DNA from: Escherichia phage Ec_Makalu_001
Sequence record: MN894885.1
Reading direction: 5' to 3' (one strand)
Length of the DNA stretch: 64,000 nucleotides
Position 1 is the first letter of the stretch, and each line of letters begins with the position of its first letter. The position numbers were made by a program, and so were the translations under genes. Below, piece by piece: positions 8,662 through 63,251 of this stretch. The notes below the pieces were generated by a model. It had not been told where the DNA came from. It ran no database searches and was given only the letters and a program-made list of their open reading frames with translations.

Positions 8662-9287
8662 AGAATTTTAAGGAAACTGGATAGACCTGATAATGAATAT
8701 ACACCAGATTCCCCGCATTCGCATTTGATCGGTACTGCCAGCGTGATTTGATTTCTTGTTAGCTCGTCGATCACTTCTTCCACTTTATCCGTGGTAAGCA
8801 TATCCAACACGCGGTCAAAGTCCTGCGCGTTCAGGTCGTCTATATTGAATTGCTGATCGCCGATCACGATATATTCGATACATGCAATTACCATCTGCAT
8901 AATATCAACATCTTCTGTAAACTTAGGTTGACGAAACTTGATTTTTACTTGTCCTAAGTCTAGAATATACGGTTCGACTTCTGGTATCTGTGTGCGTGAA
9001 ACATCAAGAGAATATACTTTCTCTTTATTGCATACACCACACACCCAAGTAGCATCAATTTTCATCTTATTGAGGCTGTGACACCATAAGAGAAGAAAAA
9101 TATATTCTGCTTCGCATTTCTCTAGCTCTAATGCATTGATCCCCGTACATTCGTATATAATCTCTATAACAACATCTGACAGCTTGCCAGTCTCTTTTGC
9201 TGCTACCAGTTTTTGAAATTCGCCGAAGGTGAAAGCACGGGCGTGTATCAACTTTTCGCCTATTTGGATCTTGAAAAAGTATTGCAT
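8658..9287 (-). CDS. 26: Baseplate hub protein gp26
   Basis: 209 aa ORF coupled to gene 25 (overlapping stop/start); starts MQYFF as T4 gp26; CxxC pairs; synteny. Confidence 0.55.
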   Translation of the reverse strand: MQYFFKIQIGEKLIHARAFTFGEFQKLVAAKETGKLSDVVIEIIYECTGINALELEKCEAEYIFLLLWCHSLNKMKIDATWVCGVCNKEKVYSLDVSRTQIPEVEPYILDLGQVKIKFRQPKFTEDVDIMQMVIACIEYIVIGDQQFNIDDLNAQDFDRVLDMLTTDKVEEVIDELTRNQITLAVPIKCECGESGVYSLSGLSSFLKIL

Positions 9288-9329
9288 AATAAAACACCCT
9301 TTATAAACACATAGAATTATTTAGTATTT

Positions 9330-9337
9330 TATAAATA
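9330..9337 (+). promoter_or_regulatory. T4-type late promoter motif TATAAATA upstream of gene 51
   Basis: Exact TATAAATA 21 bp upstream of the gene 51 ATG. Confidence 0.4.
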
Positions 9338-9357
9338 CCCGAAAGGGGGATTATACC

Positions 9358-10128
9358 ATGAATATTATCCGAATAAAACTACCGGAAGGTGTACAGCGAT
9401 TTAAACCATTCACGGTAAAAGATTATAGAGATTTCCTTCTGGTGTCAACTGAAATTAAGATGAATCCAGAAGAAGAACAAACTATACTGGATGAGCTACT
9501 AGAAGAAATATATCCAGACGTAGACCCTGCATTTCGTGAATATATTTTCCTGAACGTTTTTACTAGCTCAATAGGTAAAACAAAGATACCGCTTTGCTTT
9601 ACTTGCCCGACTTGCAACAAAGAAAGAAAAATGTTGCTCAACTTACAGGTCGAAGCACTAAAACCAATCGTTCTGGAGGCCGCAGGGCTTAAAATAACTT
9701 TCCGGTATGTGAAACCATCAACCGACTATGCAAAAACGTTTCTAGATGCGATAGAGCGTGTCTCTGATGGTGTTAATGATTATCTATGGACTGAATTACC
9801 GGAAGAAGTTAGAGATCAGGTTATCGATTCAATCTCATTTGCTGAATTTGAAGAAGTTGTTAAGCAGATGCACACGATCAAGATCGAACAAAAGATATCT
9901 TGCTGTGAAAGTCATGACCTGAAATACATAGGTCTTCTTCCATTATTCAAATTGTTGTTGAATCCAGATGAGTTATTCATCTTTTATCGAATAAACCATC
10001 TATTGGCAAAATCAAATTATTCTATCAGTGATCTTATGGACATGTTACCCGTCGAGAGAAACATTGCACTGACACTGGTCGAGAAAGACGTAAAAGAGGC
10101 AAACAATGCAAAGAACGGGGTTTCCTAA
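9358..10128 (+). CDS. 51: Baseplate hub assembly protein gp51
   Basis: 256 aa; divergently transcribed from gene 26 as in T4; CxxC...CxxC zinc-binding pairs; synteny. Confidence 0.55.
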   Translation: MNIIRIKLPEGVQRFKPFTVKDYRDFLLVSTEIKMNPEEEQTILDELLEEIYPDVDPAFREYIFLNVFTSSIGKTKIPLCFTCPTCNKERKMLLNLQVEALKPIVLEAAGLKITFRYVKPSTDYAKTFLDAIERVSDGVNDYLWTELPEEVRDQVIDSISFAEFEEVVKQMHTIKIEQKISCCESHDLKYIGLLPLFKLLLNPDELFIFYRINHLLAKSNYSISDLMDMLPVERNIALTLVEKDVKEANNAKNGVS

Positions 10129-11215
10129 TGTCTCAATAAAACTTTATCAGGATTATGAGGCATTTCTAAATCATCGCTTTATAGAATTGGGTGCTACCTT
10201 TGTTACAATGACTCTGCGTGATTCGATTCGTGGGGTGAACGAAGGATTGTTGCAATTCTATGATAATAAAGCGATGCATACAAAATTAAACGGGCGGGAG
10301 ATCATTCAGATTTCGTTATCTACTGCCAACACAGATGAAGTGTTCAACCGAATCTATGGGATCTCTCATAGTAATGTAACGATTGACCAAAAATCCGACA
10401 ACATTTTAACATTCCAGTTAAAGAGCTATCACGAAACACTAAACCTTAAATTTTCTCGCGCATTGACAAATAACGCTGTTAATAACGTAACCAGTATGAT
10501 TGATGCCATCTATAAGGAAGTCCCTTTATGGAAACCAGCTATAAAAGGTGATAACGTTGTTATTCCTCGTTGTCCGTGGGTTAGTACCATAAATGACTAT
10601 ATGGATTTTGTGAGGGCATACGGGCAAAGCGTAGAAACCGAGTCTTTCGTGTATTGTTGGGAAGATTTTGATGGTATAACTATAGCCGGACACGATACAA
10701 TATTAAAAAATGAGCCAATACCAGCTATAATCTGTGAGCCTAGACTCATGGGGCAATTTATTGATATGTCACCTAATCTGATGGTTTTTAATTTCGAGTG
10801 GCAGACTAAGAGCAATGCTAAAGTTAAAAATTCATTTAACAATGTGACATACACGACTATTGATTTTGTTACTAAGCAGTATAATAAAATTGTTGTTGGT
10901 AACGGGGATAACATTGCTCATTTTGCACATGGTGGCGCTTATGGGGAGTTGACTTATAAGAATGCATTTTTGGAAGGTTCTAAACTTGCCACAATAGAAC
11001 AGTATGATTCATATGCTACCGCCGTGTGTCATGGTAATTTTTCATTGCGTCCTGGTATGGTAATTCGATTCTTTGACGAGAAGCAACAAGCACGCAATGA
11101 TTTTATTGTTGACGAAGTGGTGCATGAAATTAGCCGAGAACAATCATTAACTCACCTGTATATGATCGGTAACAGCGAAGAATTACAGGAAGTCAAATTT
11201 GAAGGTAAGATATAA
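10106..11215 (+). CDS. 27: Baseplate hub protein gp27
   Basis: 369 aa; N-terminus (PNxSxKLxxxYxAxxNxRFxELxAT...TLRDS...NEGxLQFYD) matches T4 gp27. Confidence 0.85.
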   Translation: MQRTGFPNVSIKLYQDYEAFLNHRFIELGATFVTMTLRDSIRGVNEGLLQFYDNKAMHTKLNGREIIQISLSTANTDEVFNRIYGISHSNVTIDQKSDNILTFQLKSYHETLNLKFSRALTNNAVNNVTSMIDAIYKEVPLWKPAIKGDNVVIPRCPWVSTINDYMDFVRAYGQSVETESFVYCWEDFDGITIAGHDTILKNEPIPAIICEPRLMGQFIDMSPNLMVFNFEWQTKSNAKVKNSFNNVTYTTIDFVTKQYNKIVVGNGDNIAHFAHGGAYGELTYKNAFLEGSKLATIEQYDSYATAVCHGNFSLRPGMVIRFFDEKQQARNDFIVDEVVHEISREQSLTHLYMIGNSEELQEVKFEGKI

Positions 11216-24880: not shown

Positions 24881-24912
24881 TTTGATTCTCCGTTTGTTTT
24901 CTTGATGGGAGT

Positions 24913-24941
24913 ATCTTACTACTCCCTTTAATCATTGTCAA
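24913..24941 (-). promoter_or_regulatory. Sigma70-like early promoter (cassette; 20-bp palindrome GGGAGTAGTAAGATACTCCC spans -10)
   Basis: Minus strand: TTGACA, 17 bp, TAAGAT. Confidence 0.45.
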
Positions 24942-34510: not shown

Positions 34511-34797
34511 CTTGATACTCCTTAGTTGTTTTGGGATGGGAGTATCTTACTACTCCCGTGATATGCTGTCAACTGCTTTTTTATGCAACCGCAAACATCA
34601 ACATTTGAACATTCTTGGCTGTCTGGCTTTCAAAGTTCTGACATTCTTTGATAATGTCCTCTACTTTCTCGCCGGAGATCTCCGCGTAAGTTTCGATTGC
34701 CATTTTCAGTACCGCGTCAAAGTTGTTCATTTGATTCTCCTTAAAGTGTATTTCGTTTCGATGGGGGTATATTACTACCCCCGTTTCATGCTGTCAA

Positions 34798-35016: not shown

Positions 35017-35085
35017 TTTGATTCTCCTTTGTTTCGTTTCGATGGGAGTATCTTACAACTCCCAATATTCAGTGTCAACTGCTTT

Positions 35086-53587: not shown

Positions 53588-55078
53588 ATGGCAGATTTGA
53601 AATATGGATCTACTGTAGGTGGATCTCCCATTTGGACGCAAGGAAACTTGACGATCCAGCCAGCGGGGGATCAGCTTTTCTACAAAGGTCATAAAATCTA
53701 TACCGCTTTTGATAGACCTTCGGCTACCGATTTTGATGCTGTTAGTGCATCCGAAGGTGGCACATTTCAAAAGCAAGTTCATTTCGAGGAAGGTTTAAGC
53801 GTAGGTAGCGCATCGGCTGGAGAAACCAAAAAGAATGGTATCTTTAAAGGTCAGAGTGACGCTGCTAATTTTGACGGTGTAAGCTGGGGTTTGCATTCAT
53901 GGAAGTCAATCGGCTTTGTTAATGCCCGTGATGGCGTTATCATGGCTTATATTGACACCACAACGGGCGAATTTAAGTCTAAAGGGACTATCGAAGGGAC
54001 AACCATTAAAGACACAGGTCAACGCGTCTATAGCCCTGTTAATAAACCAACGAATAATGATTTAGATTTGGTGTCTCGTCGCGGTGATACCCTCACAGGA
54101 ACATATAATTTAAACACTGTCACTGTTAAACTATCGGTTGATTCGAAATTAATTGCAAGGGAACGTGATTTAATTAATTTTGATGCGACTAAGATCTATT
54201 ATGGTAACGTTCTTGATACGTTGGTATTCCGAAGTAAAGATGAGCCTACCATTTTTGTTAATGGCAAAGAAGGTCGTTTTTATCACACCAACAATAAACC
54301 AACTAAAGCCGATGTGGGACTAGGCAATGTCACCAATGATGCACAGGTTAAACGTGCTGGTGATATTATGGAAGGTAACTTGCAAGCGCCTAGAATGTTG
54401 GCGACAAACGATCCTGCTGGTCCGAATGAATTGGTTCGTTTGAGCTACTTTGAGAGAAAATCAATGGTAGCAAATCCAACCATCATAGGAAACGTTGATT
54501 GGAACACTCTTATTAATCGCGGTATCTATCGTGTGGAAAATGCGGGATCAGGTACTAATAAACCGTCTGATAGCTATTATAACGGCGTTTTGATGGTATA
54601 CCGACCAGAAGATGCGGTCGGTACTCGTCGAATTGTTCAGGTGTATTATCCTGAATCTATTGACCATCCGATGTGCTGGCGTTCTTGTTCTAATGAATCG
54701 TGGACTGCATGGAACTATGTGGATCACCGTAAATTAGCCGATATTCGCTATGTTAACGTAACTGGAGATACCATGACAGGGCCGTTAACTGTTCCGGCTG
54801 CAAATGGCGTTAGAACGGCTAGAGGTGCATATAATGGTGATAACTACTATGCTGGGTTAAATAGTGCCGATGGCACGGCTATGATTCACCGTATCAGCGA
54901 TATTAAAGCCACCGAAAAATTGGGGATCACCCACGACTCAAAGGTCGTGTTTTTCCGTTCTAGAAACAATACTCAAACCGTGGATCGCTATCAGCTTTAT
55001 CATGAAGGTAATAAACCTACTCCGGCTGATGTTGGTGCGGTTCCACTTAATGCGGTGATTGATTTTGGTACTTTCTAA
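53588..55078 (+). CDS. 36: Long tail fibre distal connector gp36 (enlarged)
   Basis: 496 aa; N-terminus MADLKYGSTVGGSPIWTQGN...PAGDxLxYKxxKIY matches T4 gp36, but the protein is about twice the T4 length; contains HxxNKPTxADVG fibre repeats. Confidence 0.75.
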   Translation: MADLKYGSTVGGSPIWTQGNLTIQPAGDQLFYKGHKIYTAFDRPSATDFDAVSASEGGTFQKQVHFEEGLSVGSASAGETKKNGIFKGQSDAANFDGVSWGLHSWKSIGFVNARDGVIMAYIDTTTGEFKSKGTIEGTTIKDTGQRVYSPVNKPTNNDLDLVSRRGDTLTGTYNLNTVTVKLSVDSKLIARERDLINFDATKIYYGNVLDTLVFRSKDEPTIFVNGKEGRFYHTNNKPTKADVGLGNVTNDAQVKRAGDIMEGNLQAPRMLATNDPAGPNELVRLSYFERKSMVANPTIIGNVDWNTLINRGIYRVENAGSGTNKPSDSYYNGVLMVYRPEDAVGTRRIVQVYYPESIDHPMCWRSCSNESWTAWNYVDHRKLADIRYVNVTGDTMTGPLTVPAANGVRTARGAYNGDNYYAGLNSADGTAMIHRISDIKATEKLGITHDSKVVFFRSRNNTQTVDRYQLYHEGNKPTPADVGAVPLNAVIDFGTF

Positions 55079-55082
55079 TTTT

Positions 55083-55107
55083 AGCGGGGATTCTCTCCCC
55101 GCTTTTC
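55083..55107 (+). terminator. Rho-independent terminator after gene 36
   Basis: Hairpin agcgggga-ttctc-tccccgct followed by TTTTCT. Confidence 0.55.
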
Positions 55108-55148
55108 TAAATAATATTATTCTAATAACCGTTTAAGGATTTTATAAA

Positions 55149-58404: not shown

Positions 58405-59061
58405 ATGCAAGTTTCTGAAAAAGGGAAAGACTTTGCTATCTCAAATGTCCTGCGCGCTATTTTCACAACTAAAAGCACGGAGTTGCTCGTACTTCGTGTT
58501 TTTGCTGCCGTCGTGTTGTCCATATTAGCATTTGTCGTTTATAGTAAAAACGAGTTATTCGCGCTTTATAAAGAGACTCGTTATGAGACTTATGCTCACA
58601 TTCTCCAGGTAGAGAAAGACCGCAATTTTGATAATGCAGCACAGGAGCAGTTACAGATAGTTCATGTATCGGCTGATGCCGATTTTTCTGCTGTTTTTAG
58701 TTTTCGTCCGAAAAACCTAAACTATTTTGTTGATTTGGTGGCATATGAAGGAAAGCTACCGCATACAATCGATGAAAAAAATTTAGGCGGATTCCCTATC
58801 AATAAAACGAGTGAAGAATATCGTAGGCATCTTTTAGGTAAATCCTATTTTACCGATAAAGATTTCCAGTATATTCCATCGAGGGAGAAAAAATTAGAGA
58901 ATATTGATATAGGGTTTATGTATTCTTGTCCTATATTCAATCTCGATAATGTCTATTCTGGTAGTATTGCCATTTCATGGAAGAATAAACCAGATATTGA
59001 TATCGAGAATTTAGATACTCTTTGTAATCAATCTGCCAGAATCCTCGGAAGGATTAGATAA
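58405..59061 (+). CDS. t: Holin
   Basis: 218 aa (same as T4 T); single TM; YKxxxYETYxxIxxxExxxxFxxxAxEQLQIVHxSxxADFSAVxSFRPKNLNYFVDxxAYEGKLP and C-terminal ARILGR as T4 holin T. Confidence 0.9.
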   Translation: MQVSEKGKDFAISNVLRAIFTTKSTELLVLRVFAAVVLSILAFVVYSKNELFALYKETRYETYAHILQVEKDRNFDNAAQEQLQIVHVSADADFSAVFSFRPKNLNYFVDLVAYEGKLPHTIDEKNLGGFPINKTSEEYRRHLLGKSYFTDKDFQYIPSREKKLENIDIGFMYSCPIFNLDNVYSGSIAISWKNKPDIDIENLDTLCNQSARILGRIR

Positions 59062-59065
59062 CTTA

Positions 59066-59099
59066 AAGGGGAAGCCTTTCGGCCTCCCCTTCTTTTTTA
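59066..59099 (+). terminator. Rho-independent terminator after t
   Basis: Hairpin aggggaagcc-tttc-ggcctcccct followed by TTCTTTTTT. Confidence 0.6.
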
Positions 59100-59345
59100 T
59101 TGGCGCATAGAATCCCCTGAATCACATTTTGACGCTGTATGATGAAAACAGGTAGCGTACCAGTCATCGGCTTGTTTGTCTTCGTCAGAAAACGCGTAAT
59201 TTCGTTGTATGCCGTTTTCTACTTTGACCAGTGCAATAGCTGTTTCTGGAAGATCGATCAATCGGACAAAATCACCATCTTCCCACTCTACACGAGCAAT
59301 ATCATAGCCCATCTCAAAGTATACAATCGCTTGTTCTAGTTTCAT
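59097..59345 (-). CDS. Hypothetical protein (82 aa)
   Basis: ORF in the minus-strand early cluster. Confidence 0.4.
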   Translation of the reverse strand: MKLEQAIVYFEMGYDIARVEWEDGDFVRLIDLPETAIALVKVENGIQRNYAFSDEDKQADDWYATCFHHTASKCDSGDSMRQ

Positions 59346-60018: not shown

Positions 60019-60387
60019 TCACTTAACAAAGATTTTCTTTAATGCTTTCAGGATCGTTGCTTCCGGCGCTTCTTCCGGTGGAGGAAGCAATTCTACCACT
60101 TCCTCTTCCAACTCGATATAGTCTACCAGATATTCTACATAGAATGCAAGTGCTTCCATGAAATTAGATGCTACATCCGATTCACCACAAGCGCCTACAT
60201 GCATTGTATAAACGTCACTGCGATCAAGTTTGTGGATGCTTCCCAGATAGTTCCGGTTATACCAGACTTCCCACACTTTCAGTTTTCCGGTTTTGGTTGC
60301 TGTCTTATAATCTGTTTCGTAGTGGTGCAGTTGACGTTGCAGATCATTGATAATAACACATTTTTCGTAATTGTTTTGAATTTCCAT
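60019..60387 (-). CDS. Hypothetical protein (122 aa)
   Basis: ORF with RBS. Confidence 0.4.
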   Translation of the reverse strand: MEIQNNYEKCVIINDLQRQLHHYETDYKTATKTGKLKVWEVWYNRNYLGSIHKLDRSDVYTMHVGACGESDVASNFMEALAFYVEYLVDYIELEEEVVELLPPPEEAPEATILKALKKIFVK

Positions 60388-60397
60388 GATGTAATCC

Positions 60398-60589
60398 TCA
60401 CTTATCGTTAAGAAGTTCTAAAACTTTCTGTCGTACTTTGTCAATATTAGTTGACTCAAATACTGTACGGTATCCACAACTTTGACCGTATGATCGAGAG
60501 CAATCCCCGTATCCCCATTGTTCAACCTGATAGTATTCAAGGAATGGGTGTTGCCGAACTATGATACCATCGCGATTAAAAATTACCAT
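60398..60589 (-). CDS. Hypothetical small protein (63 aa)
   Basis: ORF with GAGGA RBS. Confidence 0.35.
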   Translation of the reverse strand: MVIFNRDGIIVRQHPFLEYYQVEQWGYGDCSRSYGQSCGYRTVFESTNIDKVRQKVLELLNDK

Positions 60590-60612
60590 AATATAATCCT
60601 CACGTCAACAAA

Positions 60613-60891
60613 CTATTTTCGGTTATACTTCTGCCACTTTCGGTAATACTGCTTGTAATGTTGTTTAATGTTTGGCGGTTCGTCACTATACATGTTATCA
60701 ACCATCATGTCAATAAGACCCTCCGGTGTTTGATAGCTCCCCGCTCGAATAAGTTCCTTAATTAAAAGATCTTGCGTCGCTTTATACTCTACAATAACAA
60801 CTGTCTTTTCTGCCTTTCCAATTCCGATCCGGTCGTTAGCTCTCATAGCATCCCACCAGTCTTTTTTAAACTTCATGTTATTGAATTGCAT
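60613..60891 (-). CDS. Hypothetical protein (92 aa)
   Basis: ORF with RBS. Confidence 0.4.
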   Translation of the reverse strand: MQFNNMKFKKDWWDAMRANDRIGIGKAEKTVVIVEYKATQDLLIKELIRAGSYQTPEGLIDMMVDNMYSDEPPNIKQHYKQYYRKWQKYNRK

Positions 60892-60902
60892 AATTTAACC
60901 TC

Positions 60903-61661
60903 TTACTTGCAAACGTATTGATCTACATCAATTGCGCCACCGAATGTAGGATGACGTTTTTCAAATCGAATCGTTCCGTCGTTTGGTTCGAAAACGGAGT
61001 ATTCATATAGATCTTTCTTGCCAACATTCTTATAAAACCCGCCTTTAGTCATAACGGTTTCTTGTACGTTTGCTTTGTGTACATTGTATTCATCAATGTA
61101 CACAAAATCAACCATCTTCCCATTTTTAATAGTTACTTTAAGATCCCCTGGCTGGTTTCCATATTTTGCATACAGTGGAGATTCTTTAATTTTGGTGGAA
61201 ATTCCATCTTTCATACTCCACTCATAACGAACGGTGCATTGATAGGTAAAAGTTTCGACCTTCGGTTCTTCCACCACTTTTTCTTCCTGTTTCGGTTGTT
61301 CTTCTTCAATCTTCGCAGAAGTCTCTGAATCGCTTTCTGACGCGGTTTCTTCTTTAGGTAATACATTCATTAAGTTTTGGATTTGAGCGTTATATACAGC
61401 CTCCAGTGGCTGAATCTGCCCGATATTGATCATTGTATCACGAACAGTTTTATTCCAGTTGCGTTGCTCTTGTTTCAGAGACGGATCAATCTTAACAGCC
61501 TTAACATATACTTCATGAAGTTTAGAATCAAGTGCGGAGATTGACTCGTTAGCACAAATAAACTTCTCTGATTTGGTAGTAGCCTTAGTGCAATCAAAGG
61601 ACGCAGCATTAGCACCGATGGCAGTAGCAGAAAGAAAGATAGCAGCGATAATGTTTTTCAT
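60903..61661 (-). CDS. Secreted protein with LprI/DUF1311-like N-terminal domain
   Basis: 252 aa; signal peptide (MKNIIAAIFLSATAIGANA-AS); motif FDCTKATTKSEKFICANESISALDSKLHEVY matches the Cys-x-Cys-containing DUF1311 pattern; acidic linker and beta-rich C-terminal domain with a second Cys pair. Confidence 0.5.
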   Translation of the reverse strand: MKNIIAAIFLSATAIGANAASFDCTKATTKSEKFICANESISALDSKLHEVYVKAVKIDPSLKQEQRNWNKTVRDTMINIGQIQPLEAVYNAQIQNLMNVLPKEETASESDSETSAKIEEEQPKQEEKVVEEPKVETFTYQCTVRYEWSMKDGISTKIKESPLYAKYGNQPGDLKVTIKNGKMVDFVYIDEYNVHKANVQETVMTKGGFYKNVGKKDLYEYSVFEPNDGTIRFEKRHPTFGGAIDVDQYVCK

Positions 61662-61731
61662 AATATATTCCTCAATGTCTTGTCTTGATGGGAGTATCTT
61701 ACTACTCCCTTAATCCGGTGTCAACTACTTT

Positions 61732-61887
61732 TTAAATTTCTTCTACAGTAAAGTCTTCAATGTTGTTGTGCTCGGAGAACGTTGCCAGACCAGCATTCCA
61801 TGCATCATCCTCAGAGAAGAATACACCGTAACGTTCATATCCTTTAGCGCCTTCAAATTTAATCATTAATTTGTGAGTATGTTTCAT
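61732..61887 (-). CDS. Small protein (51 aa), not in supplied ORF track
   Basis: Own translation MKHTHKLMIKFEGAKGYERYGVFFSEDDAWNAG...; GGAGAATCAAA leader and cassette promoter upstream. Confidence 0.35.
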   Translation of the reverse strand: MKHTHKLMIKFEGAKGYERYGVFFSEDDAWNAGLATFSEHNNIEDFTVEEI

Positions 61888-61919
61888 TTTGATTCTCCAT
61901 CGTTGTCTTGATGAGTTTA

Positions 61920-61948
61920 GTATAGGGGATCACCGATCCCCTGTCAAC
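61920..61948 (-). promoter_or_regulatory. Sigma70-like early promoter with palindromic GATC-containing spacer
   Basis: Minus strand: TTGACA, spacer GGGGATCGGTGATCCCC, TATACT. Confidence 0.5.
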
Positions 61949-61956
61949 AACTATTT

Positions 61957-62169
61957 TTAATTTTTACCCACGCGTAAATTAATGCGCATTTTCTGCATAG
62001 CCATGATCTGGTTTACTGCTTCTTCTTTACGCTCTTTCGTGATAATGTGACCAGATTCCGCAAACGCTTCCGCAACTTCTTCTACGATCTCGCGAACTTG
62101 AGAACGTCCAAAGATGCGATTTCCTTCGTAGCTCATAAACTCTGTTACTACTTGCTCAATAGATTTCAT
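61957..62169 (-). CDS. Hypothetical small protein (70 aa)
   Basis: ORF with cassette leader. Confidence 0.4.
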   Translation of the reverse strand: MKSIEQVVTEFMSYEGNRIFGRSQVREIVEEVAEAFAESGHIITKERKEEAVNQIMAMQKMRINLRVGKN

Positions 62170-62234
62170 GTGATTCTCCTTTCGTTTGGTATGGGAGTAT
62201 CTTACTACTCCCTTTTCTTTACGTCAACTGGTTT

Positions 62235-62540: not shown

Positions 62541-62741
62541 CTAGTTTTTATTATTTTCGTGAAAATTTTTCGTCGCCTCATGTGCTTTTCGCTGGGCTTC
62601 TTGTTGTGCTTGCTGGCGTGCTGCCTCTTGTGAAGCCATAACGGAAGCATTTGCAGCAGTTACAGCCGCTACCATCGCTGCGGTATTAGCATTTACAGTA
62701 CATGCACTAGCCAGCAAAGCAATTGCAATCATTTTCTTCAT
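62541..62741 (-). CDS. Small secreted/lipoprotein-like protein (66 aa)
   Basis: Signal peptide MKKMIAIALLASAC with lipobox-like ASAC; Ala/Gln-rich mature part. Confidence 0.4.
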   Translation of the reverse strand: MKKMIAIALLASACTVNANTAAMVAAVTAANASVMASQEAARQQAQQEAQRKAHEATKNFHENNKN

Positions 62742-63188: not shown

Positions 63189-63251
63189 TGATTCTCCTTT
63201 TGTTTGGTGTGGGAGTATTTTACTACTCCCTTGTTCTGGTGTCAATAGACT

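Follow-up and report, generated by a model that had tools for sequence, protein, structure and literature searches.

The gene and the domains of its product

The window analysed here is a 64,000-nucleotide stretch of Escherichia phage Ec_Makalu_001 (MN894885.1). A gene on its minus strand, at positions 60903 to 61661, encodes an exported protein with a helical DUF1311/LprI-type head, an acidic linker and a C-terminal beta-barrel. The gene is a mosaic in which a near-invariant N-terminal module is joined to one of at least five old classes of barrel. The genome was that of an RB49-like T4-type myovirus of the genus Krischvirus, and position 1 of the window corresponds to approximately 95.6 kb in RB49. 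The 3-kb stretch around the gene was 99.1% identical to Escherichia phage Ec_Makalu_002 and approximately 93.5% identical to the Krischvirus RB49 record OZ035808.1; the protein shared 97-98% identity with RB49ORF260c, which is annotated as a hypothetical protein. This is no chance reading frame, since the protein matched PHROG 14799 (E 3e-153) and was encoded at 60% identity or more in 58 phage records, out of approximately 62 related ones. Coordinates of all features are collected in Table 1.

The protein began with an export signal (MKNIIAAIFLSATAIGANA, followed by AS), consisting of an MK n-region, a hydrophobic core (11-residue Kyte-Doolittle mean of 2.35) and A-N-A at positions -3 to -1. 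In the cleavage region (IGANA/ASFDC) the +1 residue was not cysteine and there was no lipobox; a lipid anchor of the LprI type was therefore not found. SignalP 3.0 had given a signal peptide at residues 1-20 and no transmembrane helix for RB49ORF260c (Nolan et al. 2006, supplement, PMC1524935), in agreement with our analysis and with the cleavable signal peptide that a preliminary description of this DNA had claimed. The same description had the protein exported into the periplasm; its signal peptide supports export, and the mature product is predicted to be periplasmic.

Residues 24-76 scored 26.5 bits (E 8.9e-6; gathering cut-off 22) with Pfam PF07007, formerly DUF1311 and now called LprI after the Mycobacterium tuberculosis protein, and the match spanned profile positions 1-71 of 106. 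Precomputed PF07007 matches were present for many homologues too. The cysteine pair C24-x11-C36 was followed by L44-D-x-x-L-x-x-x-Y52 (LDSKLHEVY), as the preliminary description had read it, and the motif residues were invariant across eight distant phage homologues. An AlphaFold2 model built from a 17-sequence alignment had four helices between residues 30 and 98 with a confidence (pLDDT) of approximately 85, a helical bundle like that of the solved DUF1311 structure. On sequence criteria the protein is thus a PF07007 member; it was not filed under MliC/PliC or Spackle, because the sequence-level tests failed there. A weak DUF1311 match (E 0.2) had been listed for RB49ORF260c in 2006 (PMC1524935). 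The signal peptide and the DUF1311 hint are consequently not new, having been published for RB49 in that year, and as an annotation-level finding they are ordinary.

Twelve glutamates and one aspartate lay in residues 101-137, and pLDDT was below 50 over residues 105-131; together with the low isoelectric point (pI), these values bore out the acidic linker. In the same AlphaFold2 model residues 135-251 formed nine strands (pLDDT 75-89); the first of these holds C142 and the last C251, both invariant across alleles. The C-terminal domain thus models as a small, putatively disulphide-clamped barrel, consistent with the beta-rich domain and second cysteine pair described before. An exhaustive phmmer search of the barrel against 1.84 billion representative proteins returned the family itself and repetitive false matches only. 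A 12-allele profile recovered just one fragment of allele E, a profile search of PDB sequences gave one meaningless match to PhoU, and the NCBIfam scan gave sub-threshold noise only. When barrel classes A-D were aligned with class E by hhalign, the probability was 3.5%, over the first 21 columns only. By these searches the barrel is a sequence orphan.

Mosaic structure and distribution of the alleles

Residues 1 to approximately 130 were nearly invariant among the aligned homologues, whereas the C-terminal domain differed drastically, with only C142, G153 and C251 invariant. In an identity matrix of 27 copies the N-domain was 94-98% identical (87% in one copy). The barrels of the same copies fell into classes A (window and RB49), B1/B2, C, D1/D2 and E, between which identity was 20-58% or similarity was undetectable. 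Classes A, B2, C, D2 and E occupied one and the same Krischvirus locus.

Nei-Gojobori estimates of nonsynonymous (dN) and synonymous (dS) divergence separated the two halves of the gene. For the N-module, dS was 0.05-0.22 and dN at most 0.034 in every pair, including virulent versus temperate phages. For the barrel, dN was 0.2-1.2 and dS ranged from approximately 1.4 to saturation, also when copies of one class were compared between the virulent and temperate pools. In class A alone, barrel dN was 0.004 and dS 0.105 (dN/dS approximately 0.04), indicating purifying selection, and dN/dS was approximately 0.04-0.2 in either half of the gene (0.1-0.3 for the barrel between alleles). The reading frame, both cysteine pairs and the signal peptide were intact in every allele. 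The G+C content was approximately 0.39 along the whole gene and equalled that of the phage and of the prophage end. A diversity-generating mechanism or ongoing hypermutation was rejected as the source of the variability, because synonymous sites of the barrel were saturated, dN/dS was low, with purifying selection within class A, and alleles differed by indels.

Nucleotide identity to seven other alleles collapsed within codons 117-129. When window positions 60400-62100 were compared by blastn with the phages GEC-3S and MIZ3, similarity was found at query positions 362-841 and 1180-1701 with no block between, and it restarted 19 nt short of the stop codon. With the prophage copies described below, the window shared similarity from no more than 6 bases from the ATG to a point inside the linker. 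These patterns indicate that the N-module was recently shared or homogenised and carries barrel alleles that are old, the recombination joint being in the linker. The safest statement is a structural and evolutionary one: the gene encodes a probably early, exported protein of two modules, arranged like LprI, whose barrel is a polymorphic cassette that virulent Krischviruses and an E. coli prophage have exchanged. The preliminary description had the architecture right and missed this most distinctive feature, the invariant N-module with its polymorphic, exchanged C-module.

Of 5426 complete E. coli genomes, 26 had the N-module, each as a single copy at 95-97% nucleotide identity. In the three genomes that were examined, the gene was the last one of a prophage inserted in hicB, beside the attachment site, a position typical of an accessory 'moron' gene. 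The three copies carried barrel classes B1, D1 and E, one different allele per strain. The prophage had a GpA-type terminase and a Rha regulator, and hicB was left truncated.

In other phage lineages, the signal peptide and DUF1311 N-module were fused to unrelated C-terminal parts of similar length, some of them apparently helical. These homologues were approximately 26-29% identical over the whole protein and more similar in the N-module. The copy in Klebsiella phage Marfa lay between the primase and dCTPase genes, and that of Escherichia phage lambda ev099 between an ea22-like gene and xis/int.

Table 1. Features of the gene, its upstream region and related copies. Positions are those of the window unless a row names an extracted region.
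Feature	Position	Strand	Basis or remark
Whole coding sequence, 252 codons plus TAA, ATG start	60903..61661	-	Orthologue of RB49ORF260c (AAQ15486.1)
Sec (signal peptidase I) signal peptide, residues 1-19, ending ANA	61605..61661	-	Hydrophobicity, -3/-1 rule
DUF1311/LprI-type four-helix domain, residues 20-100, with C24 and C36	61362..61604	-	Nearly invariant in all copies
Acidic disordered linker, residues 101-134	61260..61361	-	pI 4.3 for residues 101-134
Polymorphic C-terminal beta-barrel domain, residues 135-252, allele class A	60906..61259	-	C142 in first strand, C251 in last
Left recombination breakpoint zone, codons 117-129	61275..61313	-	Sliding 30-nt identity against seven alleles; blastn blocks
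Cassette-replaced segment relative to GEC-3S/MIZ3	60922..61259	-	blastn
Shine-Dalgarno GAGG, 9-12 nt 5' of ATG	61670..61673	-	Read from sequence
Sigma-70-type early promoter TTGACA-17-TAAGAT, directly upstream of gene	61696..61724	-	Consensus scan, 10/12 matches
Palindrome GGGAGTATCTTACTACTCCC overlapping the -10 box; stem-loop part of a promoter-early stem-loop	61690..61709	.	7 window copies
Palindrome copies	24907-24926, 34538-34557, 34763-34782, 35044-35063, 61690-61709, 62193-62212, 63211-63230
Prophage LprI-like genes, extracted E. coli chromosome regions	9001-9771; 9001-9780; 10001-10795
Other-lineage copies, extracted regions	Klebsiella phage Marfa 1501-2259; Salmonella SSU5 and Escherichia lambda ev099 1501-2199; Aeromonas AS-sw 1474-2193

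Early expression signals and neighbouring genes

The gene sits within a minus-strand block of small early genes. One flank has holin gene t (58405-59061, Pfam Phage_holin_T), divergently oriented and 1.8 kb away, together with tail-fibre gene 37; gene 52 and rIIB are on the other. A strong sigma-70 promoter and a G/C-ended stem-loop lay together at 61690-61724, the arrangement of an ORFan cassette associated with a promoter-early stem-loop (PeSL), and the annotation of GEC-3S places a promoter at the equivalent position. The palindrome GGGAGTA-N6-TACTCCC occurred 7 times in the window versus 0.05 times expected by chance, and the copies at 61690, 62193 and 63211 overlapped the -10 boxes of minus-strand promoters. 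The PeSLs described for RB49 and phi1 pair a strong early promoter with a terminator stem-loop, and through them the ORFans of hyperplastic regions are shuffled (PMC2839356). Because its promoter lies within a PeSL cassette, the gene is likely transcribed early.

Three other open reading frames in this region deserve mention. An 82-residue frame at 59097-59345 on the minus strand, in the same early block, scored 27.9 bits (cut-off 25) with Pfam PF11195 ('Thoeris anti-defense 2-like domain'), which makes it a candidate Krischvirus gene for a Tad2-like anti-Thoeris protein. The 66-residue product of 62541-62741 on the same strand (MKKMIAIALLASACTVNANTAAM...) had a signal-peptide-like start, a possible lipobox-like LLASAC and a Gln/Ala-rich tail, and gave no Pfam match; judging from these features, it is possibly a further small early protein that is exported or lipid-anchored. 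For the 122-residue protein of 60019-60387, also on the minus strand, precomputed Pfam annotation at the equivalent position of related contigs was PF26821 (Phage_T4_Y16F), and the RB49 counterpart had a noted likeness to the T4 12.8-kDa protein of the asiA-motA region; our own Pfam scan of this product returned no match at E up to 0.1.

Proposed function and rival explanations

The preliminary description had associated DUF1311 with lysozyme inhibition. M. tuberculosis LprI (Rv1541c) combines DUF1311 with an MliC domain, and the MliC domain is reported to suffice for lysozyme resistance (PMC7933661). Other DUF1311 proteins are documented or predicted to counter toxins: Etsi4 rescued E. coli from Etse4, a periplasm-acting type VI secretion system (T6SS) effector (PMC12981562), and SED_RS06230 and the neighbours of WHIX genes are predicted DUF1311 immunity partners of peptidoglycan-hydrolase effectors (PMC8867033, PMC12135965). 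DUF1311 may credibly be regarded, by analogy with these proteins, as a periplasmic toxin- or enzyme-neutralising module, and there is little ground for calling DUF1311 itself a 'lysozyme inhibitor'. The claimed association accordingly held in part: the T6SS immunity proteins and a barrel resembling MliC/PliC folds spoke for it, and ScwA, a DUF1311-only protein considered below, and the MliC-borne resistance of LprI spoke against it. The automatic name 'lysozyme inhibitor LprI family protein' should be treated with caution, since it presents as settled what is at most a putative property of the domain.

We tentatively propose, as the likeliest of the readings considered, that the product is a periplasmic inhibitor of incoming cell-wall hydrolases; it would serve exclusion, make the cell resistant to lysis from without or confer immunity to muramidase toxins of bacteria. 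An early accessory Krischvirus gene would give rise to a protein that signal peptidase I cleaves, leaving a soluble product of approximately 26.6 kDa free in the periplasm. It has three parts, namely a four-helix DUF1311/LprI-N domain with its cysteine pair, a disordered acidic linker of approximately 34 residues, and a barrel of 8-9 strands and approximately 115 residues with cysteines in the outermost strands. This is the layout of M. tuberculosis LprI (DUF1311 and an MliC-type barrel) minus the lipid anchor. As a periplasmic guard, the protein would bind and neutralise peptidoglycan-cleaving enzymes arriving from outside, the candidate targets being tail lysozymes of superinfecting phages and muramidase-type toxins of competing bacteria. 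The infected cell or lysogen would be shielded until the phage had completed its programme, and the protein would correspond in function to T4 Spackle, which has no recognisable homologue in this genus. Each barrel allele would confer a different specificity, and recombination within the linker would carry these modules between Krischviruses and the hicB-inserted E. coli prophage.

The proposal is favoured by a signature of conflict genes: the low dS of the N-module versus the saturated dS of the barrel, at least five barrel classes at one locus, the moron-like end position of the prophage copy, and the Tad2-like putative anti-defence gene in the same early block. The export signal, the early promoter and the lack of a recognisable Spackle in the genus count in its favour as well. 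The best natural structural matches of the barrel included the lysozyme inhibitors MliC, PliC, PhiA and ACP, a likeness at the level of fold only. With these 8-stranded inhibitors of lysozymes and peptidoglycan hydrolases the modelled barrel shared size, fold class, export from the cytoplasm and the placement of cysteines in the first and last strands, as in MliC and ACP (in E. coli MliC, within 'EYQCDE' and 'LNNCQL'). ACP has a first-to-last-strand disulphide and inhibits lysozyme although it lacks the MliC sequence motifs (PMC5507604). The order of parts, with an export signal, a PF07007 helical domain and a small beta-barrel, was that of LprI, whose barrel is described as an MliC domain (PMC7933661). 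LprI is lipid-anchored, whereas the window protein has a signal peptidase I site and no lipobox; it also differs in its long acidic linker, its phage origin and its polymorphic barrel, which had no detectable sequence relation to MliC. The DUF1311 T6SS immunity proteins, which neutralise periplasmic cell-wall toxins, likewise carry a signal peptide and DUF1311. However, they have approximately 146 residues, consist of DUF1311 only and are encoded beside the effector, whereas the window gene had no adjacent effector and its product adds a second, variable domain.

Several results weigh against an inhibitor. Foldseek of the barrel against the PDB gave nothing below E 0.01, and the Cap15 barrel, designed barrels, a D-aminopeptidase domain, lipocalins and outer-membrane barrels matched equally well or better, so that the fold is generic. 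A Pfam scan of four C-domain alleles at E up to 10 returned nothing relevant, with no match to PF09864, and hhalign of the barrel against the MliC profile gave a probability of 2%. The motif SxSGAxY belongs to a conserved MliC/PliC loop that enters the lysozyme active site. It was visible in MliC/PliC sequences of E. coli, P. aeruginosa and Brucella, and by eye (no pattern search was run) nothing like it was present in any listed C-domain allele. The window barrel further differed from the MliC/PliC family in an extra insertion of approximately 25 residues after strand 1. Neighbouring genes, whether in phages or in the prophage, had no recognisable toxin, hydrolase or other partner or effector domains, and PADLOC defence-system models gave nothing meaningful. 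Literature searches (LprI and bacteriophage; lysozyme inhibitor, prophage and superinfection exclusion) found no study of the protein. ScwA did not protect against lysozyme, and the same source states that no experiment supports lysozyme inhibition by the DUF1311 domain itself (PMC7933661). The invariance of the gp5 lysozyme, described next, stands on the same side.

T4 Spackle (gene 61.3), which is made early and is periplasmic, folds as a small disulphide-bonded helical bundle and inhibits the gp5 tail lysozyme of superinfecting phage (PMC7677548). The window protein resembled Spackle as a probably early product of a T4-type phage with a cleaved signal peptide, a small helical module with a cysteine pair and a periplasmic location, which is established experimentally for Spackle and predicted here; inhibition of gp5 lysozyme is a role that the window protein may share. 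Spackle differs in being a single, highly conserved domain of 75 residues without a barrel and without sequence similarity to the window protein. Homology between the two was considered and rejected (BLASTP E 0.64 over 8 residues). No sp gene was annotated between genes 41 and 61 in Krischvirus, and the best result of tblastn with T4 Sp against the window and RB49 1-100 kb and 152-164 kb was a weak hit inside gene 41, at E 0.047. The gp5 lysozyme domain was 97.8-100% identical across Krischviruses, whatever the barrel allele. Co-variation of the barrel allele with the phage's own gp5 lysozyme was thereby rejected; the variable barrel is not co-evolving with a cognate lysozyme, and any target should be foreign. 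In the RB49 regions examined, the gp5 lysozyme domain seemed to be the sole annotated lysozyme. The putative RB49 endolysin, ORF102c (RB49 54719-55108, outside the window), was annotated as peptidase-like and not as a T4 e-type lysozyme, and a match to D-Ala-D-Ala carboxypeptidase has been reported for it (PMC1524935).

If lysozymes were targeted, we speculate that the invariant head would fit the enzyme of the phage's own genus and the barrels foreign ones. This can be extended to a bolder scheme, which we regard as doubtful, of a library of periplasmic immunity alleles: the invariant DUF1311 head would act against one conserved enzyme (e.g., the own gp5, giving self-exclusion), and each old barrel would have its own class of foreign muramidase as target, drawn from the tail lysozymes of T-even genera other than this one or from T6SS or bacteriocin effectors. 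The protein would then be a two-warhead, allele-switching analogue of Spackle that lytic and temperate phages hold in common through linker recombination.

Were the proposed inhibitor confirmed, it would be a second, structurally unrelated answer to the problem of superinfection and lysis-from-without resistance, a resistance that no Spackle homologue explains in RB49-like phages. A single locus with at least five discrete alleles whose spectra could be assayed would also inform phage competition in therapy cocktails, where Krischviruses are commonly used. Whatever the function, the gene is a clear case of a mosaic, one half homogenised between a virulent myovirus and a lambdoid-type prophage and the other keeping ancient alleles. 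What is new is this mosaic, with a near-invariant N-module and at least five old barrel classes, its PeSL and early-promoter context, and its presence in a genus without a recognisable Spackle; the mosaic polymorphic architecture and the possible role as a Spackle analogue are the main points of value.

The discrete alleles would also suit superinfection exclusion or receptor masking without enzyme inhibition, which we consider somewhat unlikely. The barrel would bind a non-enzymatic partner, for instance an incoming tail-tip or tape-measure protein, or an envelope protein that serves DNA entry, on its periplasmic side, and DUF1311 would be a constant scaffold or anchor, following the logic of Llp, Cor and Ltp. 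The product is exported, probably early and encoded at a prophage end; its barrel alleles are old and discrete, as if each recognised another foreign partner, and do not co-vary with the own gp5 lysozyme. The N-module with unrelated, apparently helical C-terminal parts in Marfa, SSU5 and lambda ev099 also looks like a constant carrier with a variable binder. However, Llp, Cor and Ltp are membrane-anchored lipoproteins, and the window protein had neither a lipobox nor a transmembrane segment; no likeness to the three was found in Pfam, PHROG, NCBIfam and PADLOC scans, and the documented roles of DUF1311 favour neutralisation of enzymes or toxins.

An action on host cell-wall enzymes, like that of Salmonella ScwA, is unlikely. 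The level or activity of a lytic transglycosylase or endopeptidase would be changed, either conditioning the sacculus for lysis or lysis inhibition or stabilising the infected cell. ScwA, a disulphide-bonded periplasmic DUF1311 protein, provides the precedent, as it raises MltD levels and its overproduction causes lysis (PMC7933661). The short distance to holin gene t points the same way, as does the RB49 endolysin, which is annotated as peptidase-type and not as T4 e lysozyme, so that lysis in the genus differs from that in T4. Like ScwA, whose stability is disulphide-dependent, the window protein is a predicted soluble periplasmic DUF1311 protein. By contrast, ScwA is a chromosomally encoded, all-helical protein of 275 residues that alters MltD levels and has no role in lysozyme resistance; its DUF1311 is C-terminal and the remainder is unrelated. 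Host peptidoglycan enzymes are conserved in E. coli, which leaves five deeply diverged barrel classes unexplained, and the gene lies in an accessory block outside the lysis cassette.

We find it improbable that the barrel is a lipocalin- or Cap15-like periplasmic binder of a small ligand (a lipid, signal molecule or cell-wall fragment) with no inhibition of proteins: a fixed ligand would not predict discrete, deeply diverged alleles, cyclic-nucleotide signals are cytoplasmic, and the matched barrels shared no sequence motifs with that of the window. Least credible of all is a dispensable passenger of the hyperplastic region, shuffled by PeSLs and without a selected function in the phage, as the PeSL-rich ORFan block and neighbours all of unknown function might suggest, given how widely the gene is retained among the related phage records, the low dN/dS of both halves and the intact frame, cysteine pairs and signal peptide of every allele.

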